In this document: positions 5,800 through 63,547 of the stretch, in pieces
How positions within the stretch are numbered: position 1 is the first letter of the stretch
Layout of the letters: every line of letters starts with the position of its first letter
NCBI GenBank assembly: GCA_041389425.1
Contig: JAWKRX010000028.1
Span: 6,388 to 70,387 of the forward strand
DNA length: 64,000 nt
Source of the DNA: Myxococcota bacterium
Lineage (GTDB): Bacteria; Myxococcota_A; UBA9160; UBA4427
Direction: 5' to 3'
The notes under the pieces: generated by a model
Database searches by the model: none
Told to the model about the DNA's origin: nothing
What the model saw: only the letters and a program-made list of their open reading frames with translations
Made by a program: the position numbers and the translations under genes

Positions 5800-6657
5800 A
5801 TGACGAGTCCGGCGGAAGCATTTCGGGGCGGCGTCGCCGTCATCACGGGCGCAGGCAGCGGCATCGGCGAGGGCCTCGCGCGCACCGCCGCCGAGCTCGG
5901 CATGCGGGTCGCCCTCGCGGACATCGCGGCCGACCGGATCGAGCGCGTTGCCGCGGACATCCGTGCCGCCGGCGGCGAGGCGATCACGGTCCCGACCGAC
6001 GTCGCCGACCCGGCCGCCCTGGATCGGCTCGCAGTGACCGTCCACGATCGCCTCGGCGACGTCCGGCTCCTGATGAACAACGCCGGCATCGAGATCCTCG
6101 GCCTCTCCTGGGAGCTGCCCGTCGAAGTCTGGGAGCGCGCGATCCGGATCAACGTGCTCGGCGTGATCCACGGCGTGCGCGCGTTCGTCCCGCGCATGCT
6201 CGCCGCGGGCAAGCCCGCCTACATCGGCAATCTCTCCTCGATCGGCGGGCTCTCGATGATGGCCGTCCAGACCCCCTACATCCTGTCGAAGCACGCCGTC
6301 CTCTCGTTCAGCGAGTGCCTGCGCATGGAGATGGATCTCGTCGAGGCGCCGATCTCGGTCTCGGCCGTGCTCCCCGGTCCCATCGCGACGCGGATCTTCG
6401 AAGACGCCGCGACGGCCCCCGATGCCTCGAAGATCGAGTTCCACCGCAAAGCCATGCAGGACATGACTCATGGCCCCGGCAGCCTGACGGGCAAGCAGGC
6501 CGCCGAGATCATCCTCGCCGGGATCGCCGCGAAGGAGTTCTTCGTCTCGACCCATCCGGAGATCACGGCCCAGATGGCCAAGCAGCGCGCCGAGCATCTC
6601 TCGACCCTCTCGACGCCGACCCTCGGCGAAGAAGCGCGCCGCATGCTGCTCGGCTGA
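5800..6657 (+). CDS. SDR family oxidoreductase
   Basis: TGAGSGIG, NNAG and YILSK motifs; RBS GAGGAG. Confidence 0.9.
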   Translation: MTSPAEAFRGGVAVITGAGSGIGEGLARTAAELGMRVALADIAADRIERVAADIRAAGGEAITVPTDVADPAALDRLAVTVHDRLGDVRLLMNNAGIEILGLSWELPVEVWERAIRINVLGVIHGVRAFVPRMLAAGKPAYIGNLSSIGGLSMMAVQTPYILSKHAVLSFSECLRMEMDLVEAPISVSAVLPGPIATRIFEDAATAPDASKIEFHRKAMQDMTHGPGSLTGKQAAEIILAGIAAKEFFVSTHPEITAQMAKQRAEHLSTLSTPTLGEEARRMLLG

Positions 6658-6666
6658 ACGATTCCG

Positions 6667-7860
6667 ATGCAACAGGAGAACGCCATGACCGCGATCATCG
6701 ACATCGACGCCCATTTCGAACCCGGCGAAGACTGGCTCGAGGCCTGGCCGAAGCTCGCGAAGCGGCTGCCGAAGCTGAATCCCGGGCTGCTCGCCGTCGA
6801 CGCGATCGTCGGTGACCTCCTGCGCGCCGTCCCCGAGGCCGAGCGGCCGCCGCTGCGGGAGCTGATGCCGCCCGGCCTGATGACGCTCTTCGGAGAGGAG
6901 AAGGCCGGCGAGAAGGCGCGCCGGGCGGAGTTCGAGGGCAAGAACCAGTTCGAGGTGGCGAACGCGGCGGCGCGGGTCAAATGGGTGCGCGAGCAGGGCA
7001 TCGCCCAGCAGCACGTGATCTGCCTCGCGGGCATCTCGTACAACCTGCAGATCCCCGAGCTCGCGCTGCGCCAGGAGGTGATCTCGGCCTGCAACGACTG
7101 GCTCGCGACGACCTGCGCCGCGGGCGAAGGCCTGCTTCGGCCGGTGACGGCCCTCGAGTACAACGATCTCGCCTACGTCGTCGCCGAGCTCGGCCGCATG
7201 CGCGCCCGCGGCAGCCGGATCTTCCTGATCCCCGGCTATCCGGTGAACGGGAAGCCGCCGAGCCATCCGGACTGGGATCGCGTCTGGGCCGCCGCCAGCG
7301 ATCTCGGCATGATGCCGATGCTGCATACCGGCTTCGAGCGCATGCATTTCGATCCGGGCTGGGCGAATCAGGGCGGCGATACGACGCTGCTGCGCATGAT
7401 CTGCAGCAGCCATCGCCACGTGGCCCCCATGACGCTGATCAACTCGATGATCTATTCCGGCGTCTTCGAGCGCTTCCCGAAGCTGACGCTGCTGCTCGCC
7501 GAGGTCGGTACGGGCTGGCTGCCCTTCCTCCACCGCGAGATCGACGACCGGGTCTCGCCGACGGCCGAGCTCTTCCTCGGCCAGGCGAAGCTGCGCTCGA
7601 AGCCGAGCGAGGTCCTGGCGCAGCACGTGAAGGCGACGCCGCTCTCCGGCGGCAACGACTCGCCGCTGCTGAAGATCATGGAGGAGCTGCCCGAAGACAT
7701 GCTCGTCTTCTCGTCGGACTTCCCGCATTTCGAGGGCTTCACCGCCCCGACCGACCATTACCGGAAGCTGCTCGCCGATCTTCCCCGCCCCCGCTTCGAG
7801 GCGTTCATGGGGGGCACGATCGACGCCGCCTTCCGGCGGATGGGCGAAGGACTGCTCTGA
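6667..7860 (+). CDS. Amidohydrolase family protein (Amidohydro_2-like)
   Basis: IDIDAH, MLHTG, LLAEVG and FSSDFPH motifs. Confidence 0.8.
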   Translation: MQQENAMTAIIDIDAHFEPGEDWLEAWPKLAKRLPKLNPGLLAVDAIVGDLLRAVPEAERPPLRELMPPGLMTLFGEEKAGEKARRAEFEGKNQFEVANAAARVKWVREQGIAQQHVICLAGISYNLQIPELALRQEVISACNDWLATTCAAGEGLLRPVTALEYNDLAYVVAELGRMRARGSRIFLIPGYPVNGKPPSHPDWDRVWAAASDLGMMPMLHTGFERMHFDPGWANQGGDTTLLRMICSSHRHVAPMTLINSMIYSGVFERFPKLTLLLAEVGTGWLPFLHREIDDRVSPTAELFLGQAKLRSKPSEVLAQHVKATPLSGGNDSPLLKIMEELPEDMLVFSSDFPHFEGFTAPTDHYRKLLADLPRPRFEAFMGGTIDAAFRRMGEGLL

Positions 7861-7861
7861 G

Positions 7862-8737
7862 ATGACACTCGAGACGTCGAGCGCGACCGAAACCACGAGC
7901 GCGGGAGAGATCACGCTCGAGACGACCGCCGACGAGATCGCGATCGTCACGATCCGCCGCCCGGCCCGGCGCAATGCCCTCTCCGCGCAGACGCTCGGCG
8001 AGCTGCACGCCGTCTTCGACGAGATCGCGTCGAGCCGCACGCTCCGCGTCGTCGTCGTGCGCGGCGAGGGCGTCGCCTTCTGCTCCGGTGCGGACATGAA
8101 GTCCGGCGTCGACGACCTGAAGCAGGCGGGCGACACGCCGACGGGCGCGCTGGCAGCGAGCGTCGAAGGCGCGATCCCGCGTGCCTTCGCGATGCAGGAG
8201 CTGATGGCCGGCCTCTTCGAGAAGATCCATCGCCTGCGCCAGCCCGTGATCGCGGCGATCCACGGTCCGGCCCACGGCGGCGGCTTCGCCCTCGCCCTCG
8301 CCTGCGACATCCGCTTCGCGACGCCGCAGGCCTCGTTCGGCGCCGTCTTCATCCAGCGCGGCGTCTCCGCCTGCGACATGGGAACGAGCTACCACCTGCC
8401 CCGCCTCGTCGGCGCCGCGCGCTCGGCCGAGCTGCTGCTGACGGGCCGCGTCTTCGACGCCGCCGAGGCCGAACGGATCGGCCTCGTCTTCGAGATCGTC
8501 GAAGAGTCGCTGCTGCAGGAGCGCGCGCTCGCGAAGGCCCGCGAGATCGCGGCGCACAGCCCGCTCGCGGTCTGGATGACGAAGGAGACGATGTGGCAGA
8601 CGGTCGATTCGCCGTCGCTGCGCCACGCCCTCGACCTCGAGAACCGGACCCAGATCCTCTGCACGGCGACGGGCGACATCGCCGAGGCCTTCGCCGCCTT
8701 CCGCGAGCGGCGAAAGCCGACCTGGAAGCCGCTCTAG
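7862..8737 (+). CDS. Enoyl-CoA hydratase/isomerase
   Basis: AFCSGAD, AAIHGPAHGGGFALALACDIR and CDMG motifs. Confidence 0.9.
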   Translation: MTLETSSATETTSAGEITLETTADEIAIVTIRRPARRNALSAQTLGELHAVFDEIASSRTLRVVVVRGEGVAFCSGADMKSGVDDLKQAGDTPTGALAASVEGAIPRAFAMQELMAGLFEKIHRLRQPVIAAIHGPAHGGGFALALACDIRFATPQASFGAVFIQRGVSACDMGTSYHLPRLVGAARSAELLLTGRVFDAAEAERIGLVFEIVEESLLQERALAKAREIAAHSPLAVWMTKETMWQTVDSPSLRHALDLENRTQILCTATGDIAEAFAAFRERRKPTWKPL

Positions 8738-13432: not shown

Positions 13433-14671
13433 CTACTCCGTCACTGCCACGGCGGCGCACGGGGCCACCTTCGGCATCCTCAACATCACGAGAACGGCCG
13501 CCGCCACGCCGAGCACACCGATGAAGATCTGAAAGGCGAGCACATAGCTCCCCGTCTGATCCCGGATCCGCCCGACCAGGGCGAGGCCGGCCAGTGCGCC
13601 CGCCGTAATGAACGGCGCCTGGAATCCCATGGCGCGGCCGAAGTTCGCGACGCCGAAGACCTGCGCCATCAAGGCGCCCCAGACGGGCAGGATCCCGCCG
13701 GCAGCGAGGCCCATCATCGCGGCGCTCGCGATCAGAACGGGCATCTCTGGCTCCGTCGACATCACGCCGATCGCCGTGGCCGTGAGGCCGATGGCCGTCC
13801 AGAGGCCGAGATTCAGCGGGATCCGGTCGGCGAGCCAACCGAAGCCGAGCTTGCCGACGAGGCCGGCCAGCGTGAGCGCGACGACCATGTTCGATCGCGC
13901 CATGGAGTCTGCACCGAGGTCCGCGGCGAACTTCGGGACGTTCATCAGCATCGCGTTGTAGGTCCCGAGAAAGAGCGCGAGGCAGATCGAGATCGCCCAG
14001 AACGGCAGCTGACGCAGGATCTCGCTGGCGGCCGCGGGTTGAACGGGAGGCGCCGAAGCGGCCGCCGACCCGGCCTCGACGCCTTCGGGCAGCAGGCCGA
14101 GATCCCGGGGATGATTCCGGAAGAAGACGAGCAGCAGCGGCAGCGCCAGCAGCGCGACGAGTACGGCCATGAATCGGAGGGTGAGCCGCCAGCCGATGGA
14201 CTCGAAGCTCAGGCCGAAGAGCGGCGCGATCACGAGGCCCCCGATGGAGGTGCCGAGCGCGGCGATGCCCATCGCCCTGCCGCGCGAACGCGTGAACCAG
14301 CGCGAGACCGCCGCCTGGCCGACGATCGGCCCGAGCAGCGTATTCGCGATCGCGACGATGCTGCCCATCACCACCGCCCAGGCGATCCAACCCGGCGCGA
14401 GAGACAAGGCGACCAGGCCCGCGACGAGTCCACCGACACCGATCAGCATGAGGCCACGCACGGACCAGCGATCCACGAGCGGACCGACCACGAGTGGAAG
14501 CACGAATCCGATCGCGGTCATCGCCATCGCGCCCGCATTCATCTTCTCCATGCCGCAGGCGAACTCCTTCTCGACTTCCACGATCAAGAGGCCGTAGCCG
14601 TAGCTCATGAAGCCGACCATGAAGAGCTGGGCCATGAAGACGGTCGCGACGATCCACCAGCCATGGAACAT
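13433..14671 (-). CDS. MFS transporter (MCT/OFA-like)
   Basis: GWWIV start, GPLVDRWSVR, RWFTRSRGRAMG and GWLADRI motifs; about 12 hydrophobic segments. Start could lie upstream. Confidence 0.88.
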   Translation of the reverse strand: MFHGWWIVATVFMAQLFMVGFMSYGYGLLIVEVEKEFACGMEKMNAGAMAMTAIGFVLPLVVGPLVDRWSVRGLMLIGVGGLVAGLVALSLAPGWIAWAVVMGSIVAIANTLLGPIVGQAAVSRWFTRSRGRAMGIAALGTSIGGLVIAPLFGLSFESIGWRLTLRFMAVLVALLALPLLLVFFRNHPRDLGLLPEGVEAGSAAASAPPVQPAAASEILRQLPFWAISICLALFLGTYNAMLMNVPKFAADLGADSMARSNMVVALTLAGLVGKLGFGWLADRIPLNLGLWTAIGLTATAIGVMSTEPEMPVLIASAAMMGLAAGGILPVWGALMAQVFGVANFGRAMGFQAPFITAGALAGLALVGRIRDQTGSYVLAFQIFIGVLGVAAAVLVMLRMPKVAPCAAVAVTE

Positions 14672-14877
14672 GCAGTCCTGCCAATCCTTTCGTCGCGATC
14701 CGCTGCGCAGCCCATTCATCGGCTTCGAGCGCTCGCTCCATCCGCGGCGAGCCGAGCCCGGACCGCAGGGACCCCGCGATGGTACTGCGCCGGACGCGCC
14801 GCGCTGCCCCGAATCGCGCGCGCTCGGGTAAGCTGCCGGGGCGCTCCGCCCCACCGATCGCGGACGCAGGAGGGGCC

Positions 14878-15282
14878 ATGCCGATCACGGGTCGTTGTTA
14901 TTGTGGACGGGTCCGGTACGCCGCCGAGGGCGAGCCGGCGATGCGCATGCAATGCCATTGCCGCGAGTGCCAGTACATCTCGGGCGGCGCCGCCGTGCTG
15001 ATCATGGGAATGCCCGTCGACGGCTTCGCCTTCACGCAGGGCGAGTCCCGGGCCTTCACGCGCAGCGACATCCCGCGGCCCGTGACCCGCGAGTTCTGCC
15101 CGGATTGCGGGACGCACCTGCTGACGCGGGTGCCCGACGTGCCGCTCGTCTTTCTCAAAGTCGGGACGCTCGACGATCCCTCGCTCTTCCGGGGGCCGGA
15201 GGCGGTCCTCTTCACGATCGACCAGCAGCCGTGGCATCACGTCCCGGATGGCGTCCCGAGCTTTCCGCGCATGCCCGGCTGA
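14878..15282 (+). CDS. GFA (glutathione-dependent formaldehyde-activating/CENP-V) family protein
   Basis: GRCYCG, CHCRECQ and FCPDCGT Zn motifs. Confidence 0.9.
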   Translation: MPITGRCYCGRVRYAAEGEPAMRMQCHCRECQYISGGAAVLIMGMPVDGFAFTQGESRAFTRSDIPRPVTREFCPDCGTHLLTRVPDVPLVFLKVGTLDDPSLFRGPEAVLFTIDQQPWHHVPDGVPSFPRMPG

Positions 15283-55076: not shown

Positions 55077-58000
55077 TCAGGGCGTGGCGAGGGGCGGGAG
55101 CGAGGCGCCCATGACCGGCCGGAGCTCGTCCGGCGGTGCCGTGGGCCGGAGGTCCCGGCGCTTCCAGAGGAGGTAGACGGCCGGGTAGACGAGGAGCTCG
55201 AGCAGGAACGAAGTGGCGAGACCGCCGACCATCGGCGCGGCGACGCGCTTCATCGTGTCGGCTCCGCTGCCGACCGACCAGAGCAGCGGCATCAAGCCCA
55301 GCATCGCGGCCAGGACCGTCATCAGCTTGGGCCGGATCCGCTTCACGGCCCCCTCGACGATCGCCTCGTGCAGATCGGCGACCGTCTCGAGCCTTCCTGC
55401 CCGTTTGCGCGCGTCCATTGCGAGGTCGAGAAAGAGAAGCATGAAGACTCCCGTCTCCGCATCGAGCCCCATCAACGCGATCATTCCGACCCAGACGGCG
55501 ACCGAGACTTGATAGTCGAGCAGGTAGAGGAACCAAACGGCGCCGATCAACGAGAATGGAACCGCCAGGAGTACGATTCCCACCTTGACCAGGGAGCGCG
55601 TGCTCAGGAAGAGCAGCACCGCGATCGAGCCGAGCACCAGCGGCAGGACGATCTTCAGCCGATTCGCGACCCGCTGCATGCTCTCGTATTGCCCGCTCCA
55701 GGCGAGCGAGTACCCCGGCGGCAGCTCGAATTTCGCATCGACCAGGGCTCGCGCCGCGTCGACCCACCCGCCGACGTCGCGCCCCTCGACATCGACCAGG
55801 ACGTAGGCGGCGAGACGGCCATCCTCGTTCCGGATCATCCCGGCGCCCTCGACTCGTCGGATCTCGGCGAGTTCTCCGAGCGCGACACTCCCGCCCGAAA
55901 CGAGCGGAACGAGCAAGTTCGCAATGTCGCTCGGCCGCTCTCGGCGCTCGCGCGGATACCGGACGCTGATCCCGATCCGCTCCCGCCCGTCGATCACTTC
56001 CGCGACCGGCGCTCCGCCGATCGCGATCGCCACGGCGCGATTGAGATCGACGACCGATGCGCCATGGAAGGCGAGCGCTTCGCGGTTCGGCACGACGTCG
56101 ATGAAATGGCCCCCGGCCGAGCGCTCGGCGACGACGCTGCGCGTTCCGGGCAGCTCGCTCAGGAGTCCCTCGAGCCGCTCCGAAATCCGCTGGATGCCGT
56201 CGGAGTCGGGGCCGAGGACCTTGACGCCGATCGGCGTGCGGATGCCGGTGGCGAGCATGTCGATCCGCCCGCGGATCGGAAGCGTCCAGTTGTTGGGAAC
56301 GCCGGGGATCTGCAAACGGGCGTCGAGTTCCGCGCGCAATTCCCCGGGAGAGATCCGATCGGGCCAGACGAGGCGAAGCGGCGGCTTGACCCATTCCGGA
56401 GCCGCCGAATACCAGCGCGGCTTCTCCCTCCATCGCGCGCTCGGCTTCAAGACGATCGTCGTCTCGACCATGGACAGGGGCGCGGGGTCGGTCGCGGAGT
56501 CGAAGCGTCCCGCCTTCCCGAAGACGGTTTCGATTTCGGGAACCTGCTTCAGGATGCGATCCTGGACGTTGATCAGACGCTGCGCCTCGCTCGCCGAAAT
56601 GCCCGGGAGCGTACTCGGCATGTAGAGCAGCGTGCCCTCGTCGAAGGGCGGCATGAACTCGGAACCGATCCGCAGCGCGATCGGAACGGTCGCGAGCGTG
56701 AGCGCGAGAGCCATTCCGATCGTCGCGAGGGGATGCCTCAGGACGAGACGGCAGGCGGGCTCGTATACGCGAAAGAGGACCCGGCTCACCGGATGTCGCT
56801 CCTCGGGGCGATAGCGCCCGACGGCGAGCCAGTTCCATAGGCGACTGAGCACCACCGGACGAAAACGAAAGGGCTCCATCCGCGTGAACGTCATGCGGAG
56901 CGCGGGATCGAGCGTAATGGCCAGCACGGCAGCCAGGGCCATCGCCAGCGTCTTCGACCAGGCGAGCGGCTCGAACATGCGTCCTTCCTGTCCCTCGAGC
57001 GCGAACAGAGGAAGGAATCCGACCGCGATGACGAGCAGGGAAAAGAACACCGAAGGCGCCACTTCCTGGAGCGCGGCGAGCCGAACGGCGTGGAAATCGC
57101 CTCGACATCCCCCTGCCTGCCACTGCTGGATCCGCTTGTAGGCGTTCTCGACCTCGACGATCGCCCCGTCGACGAGCACGCCGATCGAAATCGCGATCCC
57201 CGCGAGCGACATGACGTTGATCCCGATGCCGAGCGCGAACAGAGGCAGGAAGGACAGCACGACGGCCGTCGGAATCGTGGCGATCGGGACGATCGCGGAA
57301 GGCGCATGCCAGAGGAAGAGCAGGATCACCCCGCTGACGATCAGCATTTCCTCGCCGAGCGCCCGGAATAGCGTCGAGAGCGAGCGGCGGATCAGCGGCG
57401 CACGGTCGTAGACCGGCACGATCTCGACTCCGGCCGGCAAGGACGCGCGGATTTCGTCGAGAGCGCGCTCGACCCGACCGATCAGGGCGAGTGCATTCTC
57501 GCCCTGCCGCATCACGACGACGGCGCCGACTGTGTCGCCCTCGCCATCGAGGTCCGCGACGCCGCGCCGAGGACGCGGACCGAGCGACACGCGAGCGAGA
57601 TCCCCGACCAGAATGGGCCGACCGATTTCGGCGCCGTCGGCCACCACGATCTGCTCGATGTCCTCGGCGTCTTCGATGCTCCCTCGGCCCCGGATCATGA
57701 ATTCGGTGCCCGCGATCTCGAGCAGCCTGCCGCCCCGCTCGTCGTTGCCCGCGCGCACCGCTTCGACGACGCGCGCGAGGGAAACTCCGTAGGCGAGTTG
57801 CGCGTCCGGATCGAGACTGACCTGATACTCGCGGACGGCACCGCCGATCGACGCGACCTCCGCGACGCCGGAGACGGCCTCGAGGCGGTAGCGCAGGACG
57901 TTGTCCTGGAGGCTTCGCAACGCCGCGAGATCGTGCGCGCCGGAATCATCGCGGAGCGCGTATTGATAGACCCAACCCACGCTCGTCGCGTCGGGCCCGA

Positions 58001-58382
58001 GCTCGGTCCTCACGCCGTCCGGCAGTCCGGGCAGGACCGTCGCGAGCTGCTCCGCGACCCGGAACCGGGCCCAATCGGGCTCGGTTCCGTCCTCGAAGAG
58101 GACATAGACGAAGGAATGGCCGTAGTCCGAAACGCCGCGCACGGTCTTGACCCGCGCCCCGCCGAGCAGCGCGCTCACGATCGGAAACGTCACCTGATCC
58201 TCGATCACGTCCGGGCTGCGATCCCAGCGCGAGAAGACGATCACCTGCGTATCGGATAGATCGGGGATCGCGTCCAGCGGCAGCCGGCTGGCCGACCACG
58301 CCGCGCCGAGCAGTGCGATGACCGTCGTGGCGATGACGATCAGGCGGTTACGCACGCTCCAGTCGACGATGCGTCCGATCAA
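55077..58382 (-). CDS. cusA: CusA/CzcA family heavy-metal (Cu/Ag) RND efflux permease
   Basis: LPLDAIPDLSDTQVI, DATSVGWVYQY, MSLAGIAISIGVLVDG, EGRMFEP, DMLATGIRTP and KRIRPKLMT motifs. Confidence 0.92.
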   Translation of the reverse strand: MIGRIVDWSVRNRLIVIATTVIALLGAAWSASRLPLDAIPDLSDTQVIVFSRWDRSPDVIEDQVTFPIVSALLGGARVKTVRGVSDYGHSFVYVLFEDGTEPDWARFRVAEQLATVLPGLPDGVRTELGPDATSVGWVYQYALRDDSGAHDLAALRSLQDNVLRYRLEAVSGVAEVASIGGAVREYQVSLDPDAQLAYGVSLARVVEAVRAGNDERGGRLLEIAGTEFMIRGRGSIEDAEDIEQIVVADGAEIGRPILVGDLARVSLGPRPRRGVADLDGEGDTVGAVVVMRQGENALALIGRVERALDEIRASLPAGVEIVPVYDRAPLIRRSLSTLFRALGEEMLIVSGVILLFLWHAPSAIVPIATIPTAVVLSFLPLFALGIGINVMSLAGIAISIGVLVDGAIVEVENAYKRIQQWQAGGCRGDFHAVRLAALQEVAPSVFFSLLVIAVGFLPLFALEGQEGRMFEPLAWSKTLAMALAAVLAITLDPALRMTFTRMEPFRFRPVVLSRLWNWLAVGRYRPEERHPVSRVLFRVYEPACRLVLRHPLATIGMALALTLATVPIALRIGSEFMPPFDEGTLLYMPSTLPGISASEAQRLINVQDRILKQVPEIETVFGKAGRFDSATDPAPLSMVETTIVLKPSARWREKPRWYSAAPEWVKPPLRLVWPDRISPGELRAELDARLQIPGVPNNWTLPIRGRIDMLATGIRTPIGVKVLGPDSDGIQRISERLEGLLSELPGTRSVVAERSAGGHFIDVVPNREALAFHGASVVDLNRAVAIAIGGAPVAEVIDGRERIGISVRYPRERRERPSDIANLLVPLVSGGSVALGELAEIRRVEGAGMIRNEDGRLAAYVLVDVEGRDVGGWVDAARALVDAKFELPPGYSLAWSGQYESMQRVANRLKIVLPLVLGSIAVLLFLSTRSLVKVGIVLLAVPFSLIGAVWFLYLLDYQVSVAVWVGMIALMGLDAETGVFMLLFLDLAMDARKRAGRLETVADLHEAIVEGAVKRIRPKLMTVLAAMLGLMPLLWSVGSGADTMKRVAAPMVGGLATSFLLELLVYPAVYLLWKRRDLRPTAPPDELRPVMGASLPPLATP

Positions 58383-59527
58383 GGACCCGGCTCTTGATGA
58401 TGTCCGTGTCCGTCGGCATGATCGTGGCTGGCCGGTGCATCGGATCCCCGATCCGAATGCGCCGAGTCCGTCGTTTCCGGAGCGTTCTGCAGCCTGCTCT
58501 TCCCGTAGGCCGCGACCGCCGCGCGAAATCGAGACTCGGAATCGATCAGGAAATTCGCGGCGGTCACGACGTGCTCGCCGGCGGTGAGGCCCGCGAGCAC
58601 CTCGACCTGGCCCTCCCCCTCGACGCCGACGACGACCTCACGCGGATCGAAGCGGCCCGCTTCGTCGGAAACGAAGAGCATCTGCCGCACACCGGTGTCG
58701 AGCAGAGCGTCCTCGGGGACCGCCAGCCGCCTTCCGAGCGGAATCTCGACCGCGAGGCGAACGAACGCCTCGCCGCGCAGACCGCCGCCGGGGGTCGAGA
58801 CGAGCGCGCGCACACGCGCGCTGCCGCCGCGAGTTCCCGCATCGGGATCGATCGTGACGATTTCGCCCAGGTAGAGCCGCCCCGGCCGTCCGGGGGCCGT
58901 CACGCGAACGCGCTGTCCTTCCCGCAACGATTCCGCATCATGGAAGACGCGCGCATAGACCCACGCGCTCCGCCCCGGCAGAAGCAGACTCTGGGCACTC
59001 ACCCCGGAATCGAAGATCCGTCCGAGCTGATCGAAGGACAACCCGAGCAGGCGGAGTCGAACGGCCAGTGCACGCCTCTCCTCGAGCAGCCGTGCGCCCT
59101 CTCCTTCCTGCGCCGACGCCGCCAGCACGTCGTGGTAGTCCGCGAGCGCGGCATAGAGCTCCGGATCGAACGCGACGCGGCCGGCCGTTCGGATCTCCCG
59201 GTGAATCTCCCGATAGGCCGCCTGCGCCGTCGTGACTCCGATCGTCTGGGTCCGCCAGGGTTCGACCGCGAACCCGACATGGCTGGCCGGGTCGCCGGCG
59301 GCGTCGAACGACGCCGCCGGCTCGGACTCAACCGGGGTCAACTCCATCCCGCAGATTCCACAGCGATCCGGACCGCTCGAAACGACCTCCGGATGCATCG
59401 GGCATTGATAGACGACGGCCTCTCGCGACCCTCCCTCGTCCCTGGCGCCCTCGCATCCGGTTGCCGTCACGGCGAGCGCGAAGACGAGCGCCACGACGGC
59501 CGCCAGGAAACGTTCCGTTCTCCGCAT
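58379..59527 (-). CDS. CusB-like periplasmic adaptor with heavy-metal-binding domain and His-rich tail
   Basis: Lipobox TGC; YQCPMHP...CGICGMEL; ANFLIDSES; C-terminal HSD...HDHADGHGHH. Confidence 0.85.
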   Translation of the reverse strand: MRRTERFLAAVVALVFALAVTATGCEGARDEGGSREAVVYQCPMHPEVVSSGPDRCGICGMELTPVESEPAASFDAAGDPASHVGFAVEPWRTQTIGVTTAQAAYREIHREIRTAGRVAFDPELYAALADYHDVLAASAQEGEGARLLEERRALAVRLRLLGLSFDQLGRIFDSGVSAQSLLLPGRSAWVYARVFHDAESLREGQRVRVTAPGRPGRLYLGEIVTIDPDAGTRGGSARVRALVSTPGGGLRGEAFVRLAVEIPLGRRLAVPEDALLDTGVRQMLFVSDEAGRFDPREVVVGVEGEGQVEVLAGLTAGEHVVTAANFLIDSESRFRAAVAAYGKSRLQNAPETTDSAHSDRGSDAPASHDHADGHGHHQEPGP

Positions 59528-59584: not shown

Positions 59585-60526
59585 TCAACGCAGGATGATC
59601 TGCTCGCCCCGGCCCAGCTTCGGATCCGCATCCTTCGAGGTCATCAGCACGCTGATCGCTCCGCGCAGCGCTCGGCTCATCGCATGATCCACGATCGCAT
59701 TGTTGGTCGATCGATCCGCCGGCGGCACGAGGTCGAAAGTCGCTGCAGAAGCCGGGGGAATCAGATAGGTCTGAACTCCCTCCATCACGTTGCGGGGATT
59801 TCCGTGGTCGTAGACCCGGTCCCAGATTCCGGCGATCGGATGAAGCGCGACCGAATCGTTGATGCTGGCATTGACGTAGAAGATGCGAACCCGCTCGCCC
59901 GGGTTCGCCTGGAGCGTCTTGCCCGCGTTGGGGTCGTGCACGGGGTCGTAATGAAACACTTTCCCGTTGATCAACGCGCCGATCCAGTTCTTTCCGTCGA
60001 GAAGATCTTCGACCGCCGTTCCCTCCCGGAAGAGATCGCCCTGCACGAGGACGTATTCGCGATCCGGCTTGGGATAGGCCGCGGAGAACCCGTCTTTCGG
60101 GTCGACGATGATGACCCCGTACATCCCGCGCGAGATGTGCTCGGCCATGGAGGATGCGCCGCAGTGGTAGATGAACGCGCCGGGATACTTCGCTTCGAAT
60201 TTGAACGTCTTGGTCCCGCCGGGCTTGATCTCGGCGAATTCGTCGAGGACGTCGACGATCGCCGCATGAAAGTCCATCGAATGACTGTTCTTGTTCGCCG
60301 GGTCGTTGGTCAGGGCGAACTGGACGACGTCCCCCTGTTTGACTCGCACGACGGGCCCGGGAATCGTTCCGTCGTAGGTCCACATCTTCTGGGTCGTACC
60401 CTTGTTGTCGACGGGCAGATCGACCTCCTTGACGGTCATCGCCACGTCGACGGTCCCGCCGAGGGCGGGCATGGCGAGGAGCATCGCGAGAGCGGCGGTC
60501 GGTAGAGCTCGGAGAACGGATTGCAT
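59585..60526 (-). CDS. nirK: Copper-containing nitrite reductase, Nitrosomonas europaea/Nitrobacter-type
   Basis: Signal peptide; HSMDFHA (T1 His, catalytic Asp, T2 His), YHCG..EHISRGM, LHPIAGIWDRV and AIVDH; C-terminus GRGEQIILR as in recalled Nitrosomonas NirK. Confidence 0.9.
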   Translation of the reverse strand: MQSVLRALPTAALAMLLAMPALGGTVDVAMTVKEVDLPVDNKGTTQKMWTYDGTIPGPVVRVKQGDVVQFALTNDPANKNSHSMDFHAAIVDVLDEFAEIKPGGTKTFKFEAKYPGAFIYHCGASSMAEHISRGMYGVIIVDPKDGFSAAYPKPDREYVLVQGDLFREGTAVEDLLDGKNWIGALINGKVFHYDPVHDPNAGKTLQANPGERVRIFYVNASINDSVALHPIAGIWDRVYDHGNPRNVMEGVQTYLIPPASAATFDLVPPADRSTNNAIVDHAMSRALRGAISVLMTSKDADPKLGRGEQIILR

Positions 60527-60622: not shown

Positions 60623-62188
60623 TCAGGGACGCGGAGAGCCCGCCGTCTCCGCACCGCGGAAGCCGGGATTCTCGAAGAGACCGGGGCCCTTGCCGAGACT
60701 CTCGCTGTAGTAGAAATCGGGGTCGTACTGCTTGTCCTTCCAGGCGTACCAGTCGGGTCTCTCGATTTCGTCGTACTCGAAGATCAACATCGATCCGCCC
60801 ATGTCCTTGCCGGCATTGGTCACGTGTTCGTCGACGTGGTCGTGGGTGACCCAGAGCCCCGGATTGTCCATCCGGACGATCGCGTCGTAACGCTCCCCCT
60901 GCTCGACGTGGACGACGTCGGCCCAATAGGGTTCGGGGAGCGGGAGGCCGTCCTTGTGAGTCACGAGCACGTCGTGTCCGTGCAGGTGGAAGCCGACCTC
61001 CGTCCCCGCGCCGAAGATGCGGAGTCGGACGACGTCTCCCTGCTTGACCCGGAGCGGCTGAGTGAGGGGAAACGATTTCCCGTTGATCGAGAAGTAGTCG
61101 CGCAGCTCGGAGGGATGTCCGCCGACGCCGTAACGGTCCGCGAACTTGGAGTTCCAGCCCGAGAACATGAGGATCGCGTCCTTGGTCACCTCCTGTTCGA
61201 GCTTCGTGGGCTCGATCGGGTCGACGACGAAGGGGCCCCACATTCCGCGAATCGAGATGTGCTCGGCGACGTTGACGTGGCAGTGGTACCAGAGCGTACC
61301 CGTACGCGTCGCGATGAAGTGATAGGTGAAGCTCCCGCCCGGCGGAACCGGCTTCTGCGTCACGTTCGGCACGCCGTCGCTCTGCCAGGTTCCCTGCTGA
61401 TGCATGCCGTGCCAATGGATCGTGTGGTCCATCGTCGACAGGTTCACGAACTTCACCTTGACCTCGTCGCCCTCGCGGACCCGAAGCAGCGGTCCCGGGA
61501 CCTGTCCATTGAACGCCCAGACCTTGGCGTTGAAGCCGGGAGCCACTTCGACCTCGGTCTCCTCGACCCGGATCTCGAACTCCCGGAGGCGGCTACGTCG
61601 GTACTTCTTCTTCAACGAAGCGGGGGGCGGAGGCGCGACGACGTCGAGCGCATCGGAGGCTTCCGCCACCGGGGACGCGACGCGCAGCGGCGTCGAAGCC
61701 GCTGCGGTCGGTGACCCGATGGGAGCTCGATGCGCCGCCGTCGCGGCTTCCGGCTCGGCCTCCGCCCCCCTGGAATTCGGTGCGACCGCGGTCGTCGCGA
61801 CGATCGGCGTCCCGGACCCGCCGCCCCCGGTCCCCGACAGCGTTCGAAGATGCTTCACGAGCGAAGCGATCTGCGCGTCCGAGAGGACGCCGCGCCAGGG
61901 CGGCATCAGCACGGATTTTCCGACTGCCGGCCCCCCCTCCGAAATCGCGGCGTGCAGATCCCGATCGGTCCGCGTCGCCATCTCCCGTGTGTCCGTATGG
62001 TCGCGGGGCTGGACGGCGAGCGCCGGGACGTTCAATCCCTTGCCGTCGCCCCCGATGCCATGGCAGGCCGTGCAATAGGTCCGATAGAGCACTGCTCCTT
62101 CGGTCTCGGCCGAACGCGCCAGCGCAGTACCGCCGAACATGCACGCCAGAGCCCAGGTGGCGAGCCACGCAAACGATCGCTTCTTCAT
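60623..62188 (-). CDS. Fusion of monoheme cytochrome c, Ala/Pro linker and two-domain (type C) multicopper oxidase, NcgA/BCO-like
   Basis: CTACH...LMPPW; HTIHWHG, WYHCHVNVAEH..RGM, FHLHGH, THDHVDEH and PDFYYSESL motifs. Confidence 0.88.
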   Translation of the reverse strand: MKKRSFAWLATWALACMFGGTALARSAETEGAVLYRTYCTACHGIGGDGKGLNVPALAVQPRDHTDTREMATRTDRDLHAAISEGGPAVGKSVLMPPWRGVLSDAQIASLVKHLRTLSGTGGGGSGTPIVATTAVAPNSRGAEAEPEAATAAHRAPIGSPTAAASTPLRVASPVAEASDALDVVAPPPPASLKKKYRRSRLREFEIRVEETEVEVAPGFNAKVWAFNGQVPGPLLRVREGDEVKVKFVNLSTMDHTIHWHGMHQQGTWQSDGVPNVTQKPVPPGGSFTYHFIATRTGTLWYHCHVNVAEHISIRGMWGPFVVDPIEPTKLEQEVTKDAILMFSGWNSKFADRYGVGGHPSELRDYFSINGKSFPLTQPLRVKQGDVVRLRIFGAGTEVGFHLHGHDVLVTHKDGLPLPEPYWADVVHVEQGERYDAIVRMDNPGLWVTHDHVDEHVTNAGKDMGGSMLIFEYDEIERPDWYAWKDKQYDPDFYYSESLGKGPGLFENPGFRGAETAGSPRP

Positions 62189-62919
62189 CGTCCGTCCTCA
62201 CTCAGCAGACGCAGGTACTCCATCAGCTTCCCGACTTCTGCGGGCGCCAATCCGTAATCCGGCATCGGCGCGACGGGATCCCAGGCCTGCGGCTTCGCGA
62301 TGAAGCTGGCCAGGAACTCCGGTCGCAAGCGCGCCCAGGCGTCGAACAGGTCGGGACCGGAGAGCGGTGGCCCATCCGGCGTCACGCGATGACAGGACCC
62401 GCAACCCTTGAACTTGCTGAAGTTGAGCTCGGCGAGCATGCGGGGCATGGCGGGCAGTTCAGGGTTCGTCTTCGGGAGCATTTCGCTCCCCCAATCGAGT
62501 GCAGCGAGCGCCTTCACGACTTCGTCGATCTGGTCGGACGCGAGACGCGGATGCGGCGCCGGGGCCGAATCGAGCACGTCTCCCGCCGGAGTCCGCTTCG
62601 TATGGTCGCCTGGATGCAGGCCCGCCGGGCGGATCGCGCGCGGCTCGGCGAGCCAGGCCGCCAGCCAATCGGATCGATACTTCGCGCCGGAGTAGAAGAG
62701 ATCCGGCCCTTTGCGCGTCGCATGACGTTCGACGGTCTGCTCGTCCGGTCGGGGTGCCGAGATCAGGTGGCAGGCGTTGCAGCCGGCCCGATCCAGGACC
62801 GAAACGTCCGCCGGGGCCTGCGCCTCGGCCGTCAGGGTCCAGGCGGCCGCCACGAGGAAGACGAACATCGAAAAGGCCTGCCTCGAATTGCCGATCCGAT
62901 CGTCGCGGTCTAGCCTCAT
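62185..62919 (-). CDS. Diheme cytochrome c (ncg-type)
   Basis: Signal peptide; CNACH and CGSCH, each followed by GPDL; ATGA overlap with the next gene. Confidence 0.85.
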   Translation of the reverse strand: MRLDRDDRIGNSRQAFSMFVFLVAAAWTLTAEAQAPADVSVLDRAGCNACHLISAPRPDEQTVERHATRKGPDLFYSGAKYRSDWLAAWLAEPRAIRPAGLHPGDHTKRTPAGDVLDSAPAPHPRLASDQIDEVVKALAALDWGSEMLPKTNPELPAMPRMLAELNFSKFKGCGSCHRVTPDGPPLSGPDLFDAWARLRPEFLASFIAKPQAWDPVAPMPDYGLAPAEVGKLMEYLRLLSEDGR

Positions 62920-63027
62920 TGCGCTTCGACTCCGAGTCCTGCTCCGTCTCACGGGCCCCGTCCTTCCGAGAGCCGATCGAATCGTCGCCCGGGCGGGCTT
63001 CGCGGCTGCGATTTCGACGTCGCGTTG

Positions 63028-63052
63028 ATTGTGGAGTTTGAAGTACCACAAT
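63028..63052. promoter_or_regulatory. Rrf2/NsrR-type operator candidate ATTGTGGAGTTT-G-AAGTACCACAAT
   Basis: ATTGTGG-N11-CCACAAT palindrome in the AT-rich divergent intergenic region; TTT-n-AA core. Confidence 0.6.
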
Positions 63053-63085
63053 TAGCGATCCGCCGTCAACGGGCAATTCTCCGAA

Positions 63086-63547
63086 ATGCGACTCACCCAA
63101 TTCACCGACTACGGGCTGCGCGTTCTCATGTACGTGGCGAGCCGCGAAGGGGAATTCGTTCCGACCGAGCGGATCGCGACGATCTTCGCGATCTCGCAGG
63201 ACCATCTGCTCAAGGTCGTTCGACGTCTCGTGGAGCTGGGCTACGTCGAGGCGAAGCGGGGCGCTCGCGGAGGCGTTCGGCTCCAGCCCGCGGCGCGCAC
63301 GGCGACCGTGGGCGAGGTCATTCGAAACCTCGAGCCGCAACTCCTGGTCGAGTGCTTCGATCCGGAAGTCAATCAATGCCCGATCGCGGAATTCTGCGGA
63401 CTCTCGTCCCTGCTGCGGCGGGCAGGGGCGGCGTTCTACCGTGAACTCGACCGCGTCTCAATCGGGGAGCTGATGCCGTCGGCCGCCCTGCGCAAAGGGT
63501 GGCCGCCCATCGACTCCGATTCGAAGAAGAGCCGGAGATCCAGATAG
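63086..63547 (+). CDS. nsrR: Rrf2 family NO-sensing repressor NsrR
   Basis: MRLTQFTDYGLRVLMY, HLLKVV, RGARGG and three Cys (VECF..QCP..FCGL). Confidence 0.85.
   Translation: MRLTQFTDYGLRVLMYVASREGEFVPTERIATIFAISQDHLLKVVRRLVELGYVEAKRGARGGVRLQPAARTATVGEVIRNLEPQLLVECFDPEVNQCPIAEFCGLSSLLRRAGAAFYRELDRVSIGELMPSAALRKGWPPIDSDSKKSRRSR

Follow-up and report, generated by a model that had tools for sequence, protein, structure and literature searches.

The closest described system to the one reported here is the ncgABC-nirK cluster of Nitrosomonas europaea, in which four separate genes are arranged in the order ncgA-ncgB-ncgC-nirK (PMC4940428, PMC3603346) and the role of ncgABC beside nirK is still called unresolved (PMC6967387, PMC5080386). 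The ncg gene names used below follow PMC3603346, PMC4940428 and PMC6967387. The locus under study lies in a stretch of 64,000 nt (the window) of contig JAWKRX010000028.1, from the Myxococcota bacterium metagenome-assembled genome (MAG) GCA_041389425.1. Its central element is the gene at 60623-62188 on the reverse strand, which encodes a monoheme cytochrome c joined to a two-domain multicopper oxidase (MCO). Both systems contain the same type C MCO (NcgA in N. europaea, 3G5W), a diheme cytochrome c, a monoheme cytochrome c, a NirK of N. europaea type (4KNS) and an NsrR-like regulator. They differ in that NcgC and NcgA here form one polypeptide, with a tether of 64-91 aa among the relatives; in the gene order, which is diheme-[monoheme~MCO]-nirK-cusBA (the sign ~ marking a fusion); and in the host, a heterotrophic Myxococcota-like MAG and no nitrifier. 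The fusion is a genuine and, it appears, selectively maintained joining of neighbouring genes of the ncg-nirK module. We give a probability of about 0.6 to the reading that the fused NcgC~NcgA trimer is a soluble periplasmic cytochrome c oxidase which works beside NirK and an NsrR-like repressor, in a module for nitrite and nitric oxide (NO) stress.

The closest solved structure is the metagenome-derived mgLAC (2ZWN), with about 60% identity over the entire oxidase part and identical copper motifs; it was solved without a heme domain and characterised as a laccase on artificial substrates, its partner being not known. The best mechanistic precedent, by analogy, would be the cytochrome c-tethered NirKs (Ralstonia pickettii RpNiR 3ZIY, Pseudoalteromonas PhNiR 2ZOO and the four-domain BrNiR 6THE), formed by a trimeric two-cupredoxin core and a covalent class I cytochrome c feeding the type 1 (T1) copper; in RpNiR and PhNiR the electrons pass from heme to T1. 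These enzymes present a C-terminal heme, a short linker and a nitrite-reducing type 2 (T2) copper, whereas the fusion has an N-terminal heme, a long disordered tether and the His set of a trinuclear, O2-reducing centre. They match only distantly, at E 1e-38 or weaker and to the neighbouring NirK, and the fused core matches MCOs far better than NirK. A like fusion is the MCO of Nitrosopumilus maritimus (9CCK), from another nitrogen-cycle organism, where a two-domain MCO core also bears a one-electron carrier; this carrier, however, is a C-terminal cupredoxin and not a heme, and the core is 27-28% identical. Finally, cytochrome c_y of Rhodobacter is similar in description, being a class I cytochrome c on a long Ala/Pro-rich arm that shuttles between donor and oxidase and is kept from diffusing off. 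It is anchored to the membrane, whereas the heme of the fusion is anchored to the acceptor enzyme.

No solved structure with a cytochrome c fused to a two-domain MCO was identified by sequence and Foldseek structure comparison, and no description of such a fusion was found in the literature searched (subscription journals outside coverage). The fused proteins are public under generic names such as "multicopper oxidase domain-containing protein", "cytochrome c553" and "manganese oxidase". A wide earlier description of the architecture would have told against the sequence-only reading of this DNA; none turned up in that literature, though the architecture is not unique, being present in at least 36 public clusters.

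The fused gene is a single uninterrupted open reading frame (ORF) of 521 aa in the ORF list of the window. It comprises four parts, whose supports include AlphaFold2 (AF2) and the GC content at third codon positions (GC3):

62114..62188, reverse strand: Sec-type signal peptide, MKKRSFAWLATWALACMFGGTALA/RS, read from the sequence, with a predicted cleavage site.
61835..62113, reverse strand: monoheme class I cytochrome c domain, NcgC-like, residues 26-118 (Pfam, invariant residues, stand-alone orthologues).
61592..61834, reverse strand: Ala/Pro/Gly/Ser-rich tether, residues 119-199 (composition, indels, GC3, AF2).
60623..61591, reverse strand: type C two-domain multicopper oxidase, NcgA/mgLAC-like, residues 200-521 and the stop codon (Pfam, match to 2ZWN/3G5W, Foldseek).

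The leader contains no twin-arginine motif on inspection of the sequence, and a hydrophobic N-terminal leader was identified in 33/33 aligned fused homologues, the alignment to which all statements on residue invariance refer. The heme domain matches Pfam Cytochrom_C / Cytochrome_CBB3 at residues 28-118 (E 2e-10), with 42.3 bits for PF00034 (cut-off 21.3) and 41.3 bits for PF13442 (cut-off 27). The only CXXCH of the protein is C39-T-A-C42-H43, and these two Cys and the His, along with M95 in the motif LMPPW, are invariant across the 33 homologues; C39, C42 and H43 are likely heme-binding and M95 the likely sixth ligand. The CXXCH, the distal Met, the fold and the export leader point to a class I c-type cytochrome. 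A CcoP-like similarity was also seen in this domain, under the family cut-off.

The oxidase part matches Cu-oxidase_3 at residues 208-324 (E 5e-37) and Cu-oxidase_2 at residues 365-458 (E 3e-24), which along with the cytochrome c match are all over the curated cut-offs. Exactly two cupredoxin domains are present, a third being absent from the Pfam result. The copper motifs are H255-T-I-H258-W-H260 and H302-C303-H304...H310...M316 in domain 1, and H401-L-H403 and H449-D450-H451 in domain 2; all are identical in 2ZWN and 3G5W and invariant across the fused family. The T1 ligands are probably H255, C303, H310 and M316, thus in domain 1 only, with Asp450 of the HDH motif occupying the position of the T1 Cys of type A/B enzymes. 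The trinuclear centre would be held by H258, H260, H302 and H304 of domain 1 and H401, H403, H449 and H451 of domain 2. Since these eight His and the T1 set are kept, O2 reduction has probably been retained. The sequence matches are E 1e-136 to 2ZWN and E 9e-114 to 3G5W (the N. europaea blue copper oxidase), and Foldseek with the AF2 model gave E 1e-43 and 9e-39 respectively, with a template modelling (TM) score of 0.89 to both. By homology with these two structures a homotrimer with interfacial trinuclear centres is expected.

Measured between motif borders the linker has 87 aa (residues 119-205) and is rich in A/P/G/S/T. The AF2 monomer, built on a shallow alignment of 33 rows (mean predicted local distance difference test, pLDDT, 66; predicted TM score, pTM, 0.61), is usable for linker disorder only. 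It places residues 123-179 under pLDDT 50, with about 28-30 across 130-170, so that an arm of about 57 residues is predicted to be disordered. The conserved segment 180-200 (DVVAPPPP..KKKY) has pLDDT 77-87, is ordered and is packed with the oxidase. The sequence-only reading had described this layout as a natural fusion of one CXXCH domain, a linker of about 75 aa and a type C two-domain MCO with T1 in domain 1 only and HDH in domain 2. The domain assignments agree with it throughout and its linker length was about right.

The natural origin of the fusion, also claimed there, is borne out by several lines of evidence. The same in-frame architecture recurs in no fewer than 36 clusters (formed at 90% identity), assembled independently in different studies and phyla. 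These homologues are 48-84% identical to the fusion and come from MAGs labelled Myxococcota, Candidatus Binatia, Thermodesulfobacteriota and Bryobacterales. The figure of about 36 is a lower bound; a search with the full-length protein covered up to 8000 candidates and 120 rows, and a word-based search with the cytochrome region gave 28 matches for the clade of the window (fused clade 1) and 4 for a second one (fused clade 2). Two congeneric genomes carry the fusion without internal stops. The linker indels with respect to the loci L004, L003 and L006 are of 12, 6, 3, 6 and 12 nt, all multiples of three, and the DNA identity to these loci is 78/56/55% in the linker and 89/86/81% in the oxidase; the linker evolves fast and the reading frame is kept. 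GC at linker codon positions 1/2/3 is 0.70/0.72/0.82, thus highest at the third position in frame, and each of the other frames holds a stop. No start codon with leader peptide was found ahead of the oxidase part, unlike in unfused relatives. Four short homologues (P0016, P0021, P0028 and P0033) were considered as unfused intermediates and rejected as truncated gene calls: they start within the cytochrome domain (MPPWR.. or MGTRSDQ..) and have no cytochrome Pfam match.

The unfused relatives indicate how the fusion may have arisen. In a scan of one genome per species 401 loci encode a relative, and the best 80 were examined with tblastn and the window proteins. Nine of these are fused (L003-L009, L019 and L023, L009 being the same contig as L001). 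Nearly all 80 contain a four-gene module of nirK, a diheme cytochrome c (~230 aa), a monoheme cytochrome c (~120 aa) and the MCO. A stand-alone monoheme gene lies directly upstream of the MCO gene in about 66 unfused loci, as in Emcibacter (L024; monoheme gene at 5917-6279, oxidase at 6323-7390) and in L010 (monoheme stop at 6345, MCO start at 6364). These stand-alone cytochromes of about 120 aa are 44-67% identical to the fused heme domain, which by sequence is the orthologue of the NcgC-type monoheme cytochrome; the source genome contains one copy of the fusion, and a separate NcgC gene was not found in it. As the monoheme gene adjoins the MCO upstream in unfused loci, the fusion joined neighbours in their existing order, probably by read-through of adjacent NcgC-like and NcgA-like genes with the leader region of the oxidase replaced by the tether. 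A conflict between twin-arginine (Tat) and Sec export was considered as an obstacle and rejected, the unfused MCOs of the family carrying Sec-type leaders without RR. This adjacency of the stand-alone orthologue also makes sound the Rosetta-stone argument of the sequence-only reading, in which the cytochrome is the partner of the NcgA-type oxidase. Operon adjacency had already implied that partnership, so the fusion adds weight to it and no new link.

The commonest gene order is nirK-diheme-c-MCO. Exceptions are L076 and L082, with MCO-diheme-c-nirK (matching N. europaea), and Ferruginivarius (L057), with an unfused diheme-c-MCO-nirK. The clade of the window presents diheme-[c~MCO]-nirK behind a divergent Rrf2 gene, often with cusB after nirK, and the second fused group (L023 from Bryobacterales, P0034-36, P0040 and P0048) keeps nirK-diheme-[c~MCO]. 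The position of nirK thus varies across the loci, being upstream, downstream or absent (L079, L087).

In a maximum-likelihood tree of the oxidase domain the fused proteins fall into two clades, with supports of 99 and 97, that are kept apart by unfused sequences, and a single fused clade is not rejected by the approximately unbiased (AU) test (p 0.42). A further character is a C-terminal vicinal Cys pair ([HY]LRxLCCxxx followed by the stop), noticed in this analysis and no established family criterion. It was identified in nearly all stand-alone monoheme cytochromes (e.g. L010 at ~6040-6345, L013, L025 and L045) and is kept in fused clade 2, including L023. It is absent in fused clade 1 (LRTLSGT in the window), in Emcibacter L024, the nearest unfused neighbour of fused clade 1 on the tree, and in diheme~monoheme fusions. 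The pair may form a Cu site or a disulfide, or act as a thiol switch. Because both the gene orders and the pattern of this motif differ between the clades, we regard two fusion events as more likely than one.

Within the genus of the source organism 3 of 25 genomes carry the fusion, and none of 16 others in the order does. Vertical inheritance as the main pattern was rejected on these counts; the cassette is an accessory one that probably spreads horizontally. The oxidase part of the L003 cassette (JACKFD010000005.1) has 93% identity both to that of the window and to that of a Myxococcota MAG; this record is titled Spirochaetaceae bacterium and bears the isolate name HK-STAS-MYXO-51, and its taxonomic label looks doubtful.

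A second kind of fusion was identified with the cytochrome-region search, in two proteins of 352-354 aa (P0122 and P0123) comprising a diheme cytochrome, an Ala/Pro/Gln linker and a monoheme cytochrome. In L087 the gene of the tri-heme P0123 (5001-6059) is two genes upstream of a more distant type C-like two-domain MCO (7345-8508, 43% identity), and nirK was not found within this 11-kb locus. Its neighbours are ketoacyl synthase, phosphopantetheinyl transferase, acyltransferase and cyclase genes. Taken with the c~MCO fusion, this architecture suggests a chain NcgB - NcgC - NcgA that may exist without NirK.

The remaining elements of the window locus are the following (RND, resistance-nodulation-division):

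63086..63547, forward strand: Rrf2-family regulator, NsrR-like, with three Cys (ECFDPEVNQCPIAEFCG), divergent from the operon (Pfam Rrf2, E 3e-29).
63028..63053, no strand: palindrome AATTGTGGTA-N6-CTCCACAAT, putative operator, between the Rrf2 and diheme genes (read from sequence).
62185..62918, reverse strand: periplasmic diheme cytochrome c, NcgB-like (CNACH, CGSCH; ORF and Pfam Cytochrom_C).
59585..60526, reverse strand: copper nitrite reductase NirK, N. europaea type (4KNS, E 2e-102).
58379-59527, reverse strand: CusB-like gene of a copper RND exporter (HMBD and HlyD_D23 matches).
55077-58382, reverse strand: CusA-like gene of a copper RND exporter, a label that rests on an ORF of 1101 aa.

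The regulator scores about equally with the NCBIfam models of NsrR (108.6 bits) and RirA (107.4 bits), both under cut-offs, and its divergent gene is kept in all loci of fused clade 1. The core of the palindrome, ATTGTGGTA..TACCACAAT, recurs in the promoter regions of six loci of the fused clade, including L001, L003, L004, L005 and L008, and TTGAC lies next to it at 63065-63069. This fits a putative operator of the Rrf2 regulator; the palindrome looks unlike the E. coli NsrR box.

In nearly all 80 loci a diheme homologue (35-76% identity) immediately precedes the monoheme gene or domain. The program-called diheme ORF of 288 aa (62185-63051) begins at a TTG inside the putative operator; as the homologues have about 230-241 aa, translation probably begins at the ATG at 62918. 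In the first heme domain of this protein there is a faint CcoO/FixO-like similarity, under family cut-offs. The stop codon of the diheme gene overlaps the start codon of the fusion as ATGA, suggesting translational coupling. On the other side nirK begins 96 nt past the fusion stop, behind a good ribosome-binding site (AGAGGAAG); its product is 59-92% identical to the NirK homologues of nearly all 80 loci and reaches 177 bits with TIGR02376, under the cut-off of 296. The cusB-cusA-like genes directly downstream may belong to this transcript as well. In L003 and L005-L008 (most of fused clade 1), but not in unfused loci, nirK is likewise followed by a CusB homologue, which suggests a tie between copper handling and the two copper enzymes.

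The source MAG has 5.97 Mb in 78 contigs, is 92% complete and encodes cbb3 and aa3 oxidases and one cytochrome P460 (C16:62897-64189, C34:13652-14994 and C2:330128-330469, respectively). The match to aa3 subunit I on C34 is in two pieces, 13652-14611 and 14629-14994. A cytochrome P460 gene was also identified beside the cassette in L001. Neither a NorB-type heme-copper enzyme nor a clade II NosZ was found in this 92%-complete MAG (the search did not extend to clade I nosZ, nirS, nar or nap), so NirK probably works here outside full denitrification.

The mechanism proposed for the fused oxidase is as follows. The protein would be made together with NirK under the NsrR-like repressor and exported by Sec, with heme c attached in the periplasm. 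On the model of 2ZWN and 3G5W it would form a trimer in which every interface between subunits holds a trinuclear copper centre; there would then be three hemes per trimer, as the sequence-only reading had proposed. The heme domain, on its disordered Ala/Pro tether, would be a captive electron carrier, reduced by the co-translated NcgB-like diheme cytochrome or another periplasmic donor. Docking near T1 of domain 1, it would hand over single electrons, which T1 (H255/C303/H310/M316) and the Cys-His bridge would relay to the trinuclear centre for the reduction of O2 to water. The arm of about 57 residues could reach T1 on its own or on a neighbouring subunit, the width of the trimer being taken as ~80-90 Å (an estimate, not computed). 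A cytochrome c with His/Met ligands is normally lower in potential than a Met-ligated T1 copper, and this, along with the analogy to the tethered NirKs, makes the heme the probable point of electron entry. Such an entry agrees with the oxidation of ferrocytochrome c reported for the blue copper oxidase of N. europaea (DiSpirito et al. 1985; Lawton et al. 2009). We infer the trimer, the direct transfer from heme to T1 and its direction, O2 as acceptor and the physiological role. In a cell expressing NirK such an oxidase could serve for O2 scavenging, as an electron sink or for oxidation of NirK-derived NO.

Several points weigh against this oxidase reading. The AF2 monomer is mediocre and its domain contacts are unreliable. 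On so long and floppy a tether the heme could also get to other partners, NirK included. A fusion of adjacent genes can arise by stop loss and be tolerated without contact between the domains, and most lineages keep both genes separate, so the fusion is not required. Finally, the ncgABC literature points to tolerance of NO and nitrite and not to O2 respiration (PMC5080386, PMC6967387).

The first alternative takes the fusion as a tolerated stop-loss accident between adjacent genes, in which the oxidase is a mere anchor and the heme really serves NirK or another periplasmic enzyme. In its favour are the long, disordered tether, the separate genes of most lineages and the place of nirK directly downstream in fused clade 1. 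NirK also depends on a c-type cytochrome or a cupredoxin for its electrons, and the operon encodes no other donor. We consider it doubtful: in the commonest order the monoheme gene is directly ahead of the MCO, whereas the position of nirK is variable or the gene is absent (L079, L087); homologues of only 48% identity still carry the fusion, which may have arisen on two occasions; and the diheme cytochrome is available as donor to NirK.

In the second alternative the substrate of the oxidase is NO (or hydroxylamine) made by or near NirK, with NO oxidised to nitrite at T1 as in ceruloplasmin, which has NO oxidase activity. The heme would then either supply the further electrons that O2 needs for its four-electron reduction, or export NO-derived electrons to the respiratory chain. 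In nearly all 80 loci the MCO is tightly linked with NirK and an NsrR-like regulator, cytochrome P460 genes are present in the source genome and beside the L001 cassette, and NirK is harmful in ncg mutants of N. europaea. With cbb3 and aa3 as the only heme-copper oxidases identified in the 92%-complete MAG, and neither a NorB-type enzyme nor a clade II NosZ among them, NO made by NirK would need another sink, and ncgABC has been implicated in NOx consumption and tolerance (PMC5080386). On the other hand, no NO site is identifiable in the sequence and the module is also present in ordinary denitrifier-like Gammaproteobacteria. The L087 cytochromes accompany an MCO without NirK, and the absence of nor is unproven in an incomplete MAG. 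Moreover, His/Met cytochromes c bind NO poorly. That NO (or hydroxylamine) is the real substrate of the oxidase seems unlikely.

A combined form, in which NcgB, the tethered NcgC heme and the NcgA trimer are a soluble copper terminal oxidase with NO as a second substrate beside cytochrome c, returning NO to nitrite using O2 next to NirK in organisms that lack an NO reductase, is quite improbable on present evidence. If true, it might account for the long-sought oxidation of NO that has been connected with the nitrifier ncg genes, and the fused enzyme would be the first self-contained form for measuring NO oxidation. Last, an assembly or sequencing artefact (a stop or frameshift missed between what are really two genes) is hardly credible: the source is a MAG of 78 contigs and the linker is GC-rich and of low complexity, but the independent assemblies, the stop-free congeneric genomes, the frame-keeping indels, the in-frame GC3 maximum and the missing start and leader of the oxidase part all stand against it.

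Under the oxidase reading the c~MCO fusion fixes the link between NcgC and NcgA, and the diheme~monoheme fusion suggests that between NcgB and NcgC; together they replace a vague nirK-cluster label by a definite electron path that can be tested. Beyond nitrifiers the four-gene module is widespread, as the 401 species genomes with a relative indicate. Heme and copper on one polypeptide are convenient for the measurement of intramolecular electron transfer, as the tethered NirKs were, and the fused protein could show directly whether O2 is the only substrate of this oxidase family or NO is one too. The fusion therefore supports a partnership already suggested by synteny and offers an experimental handle on the old ncgABC question.

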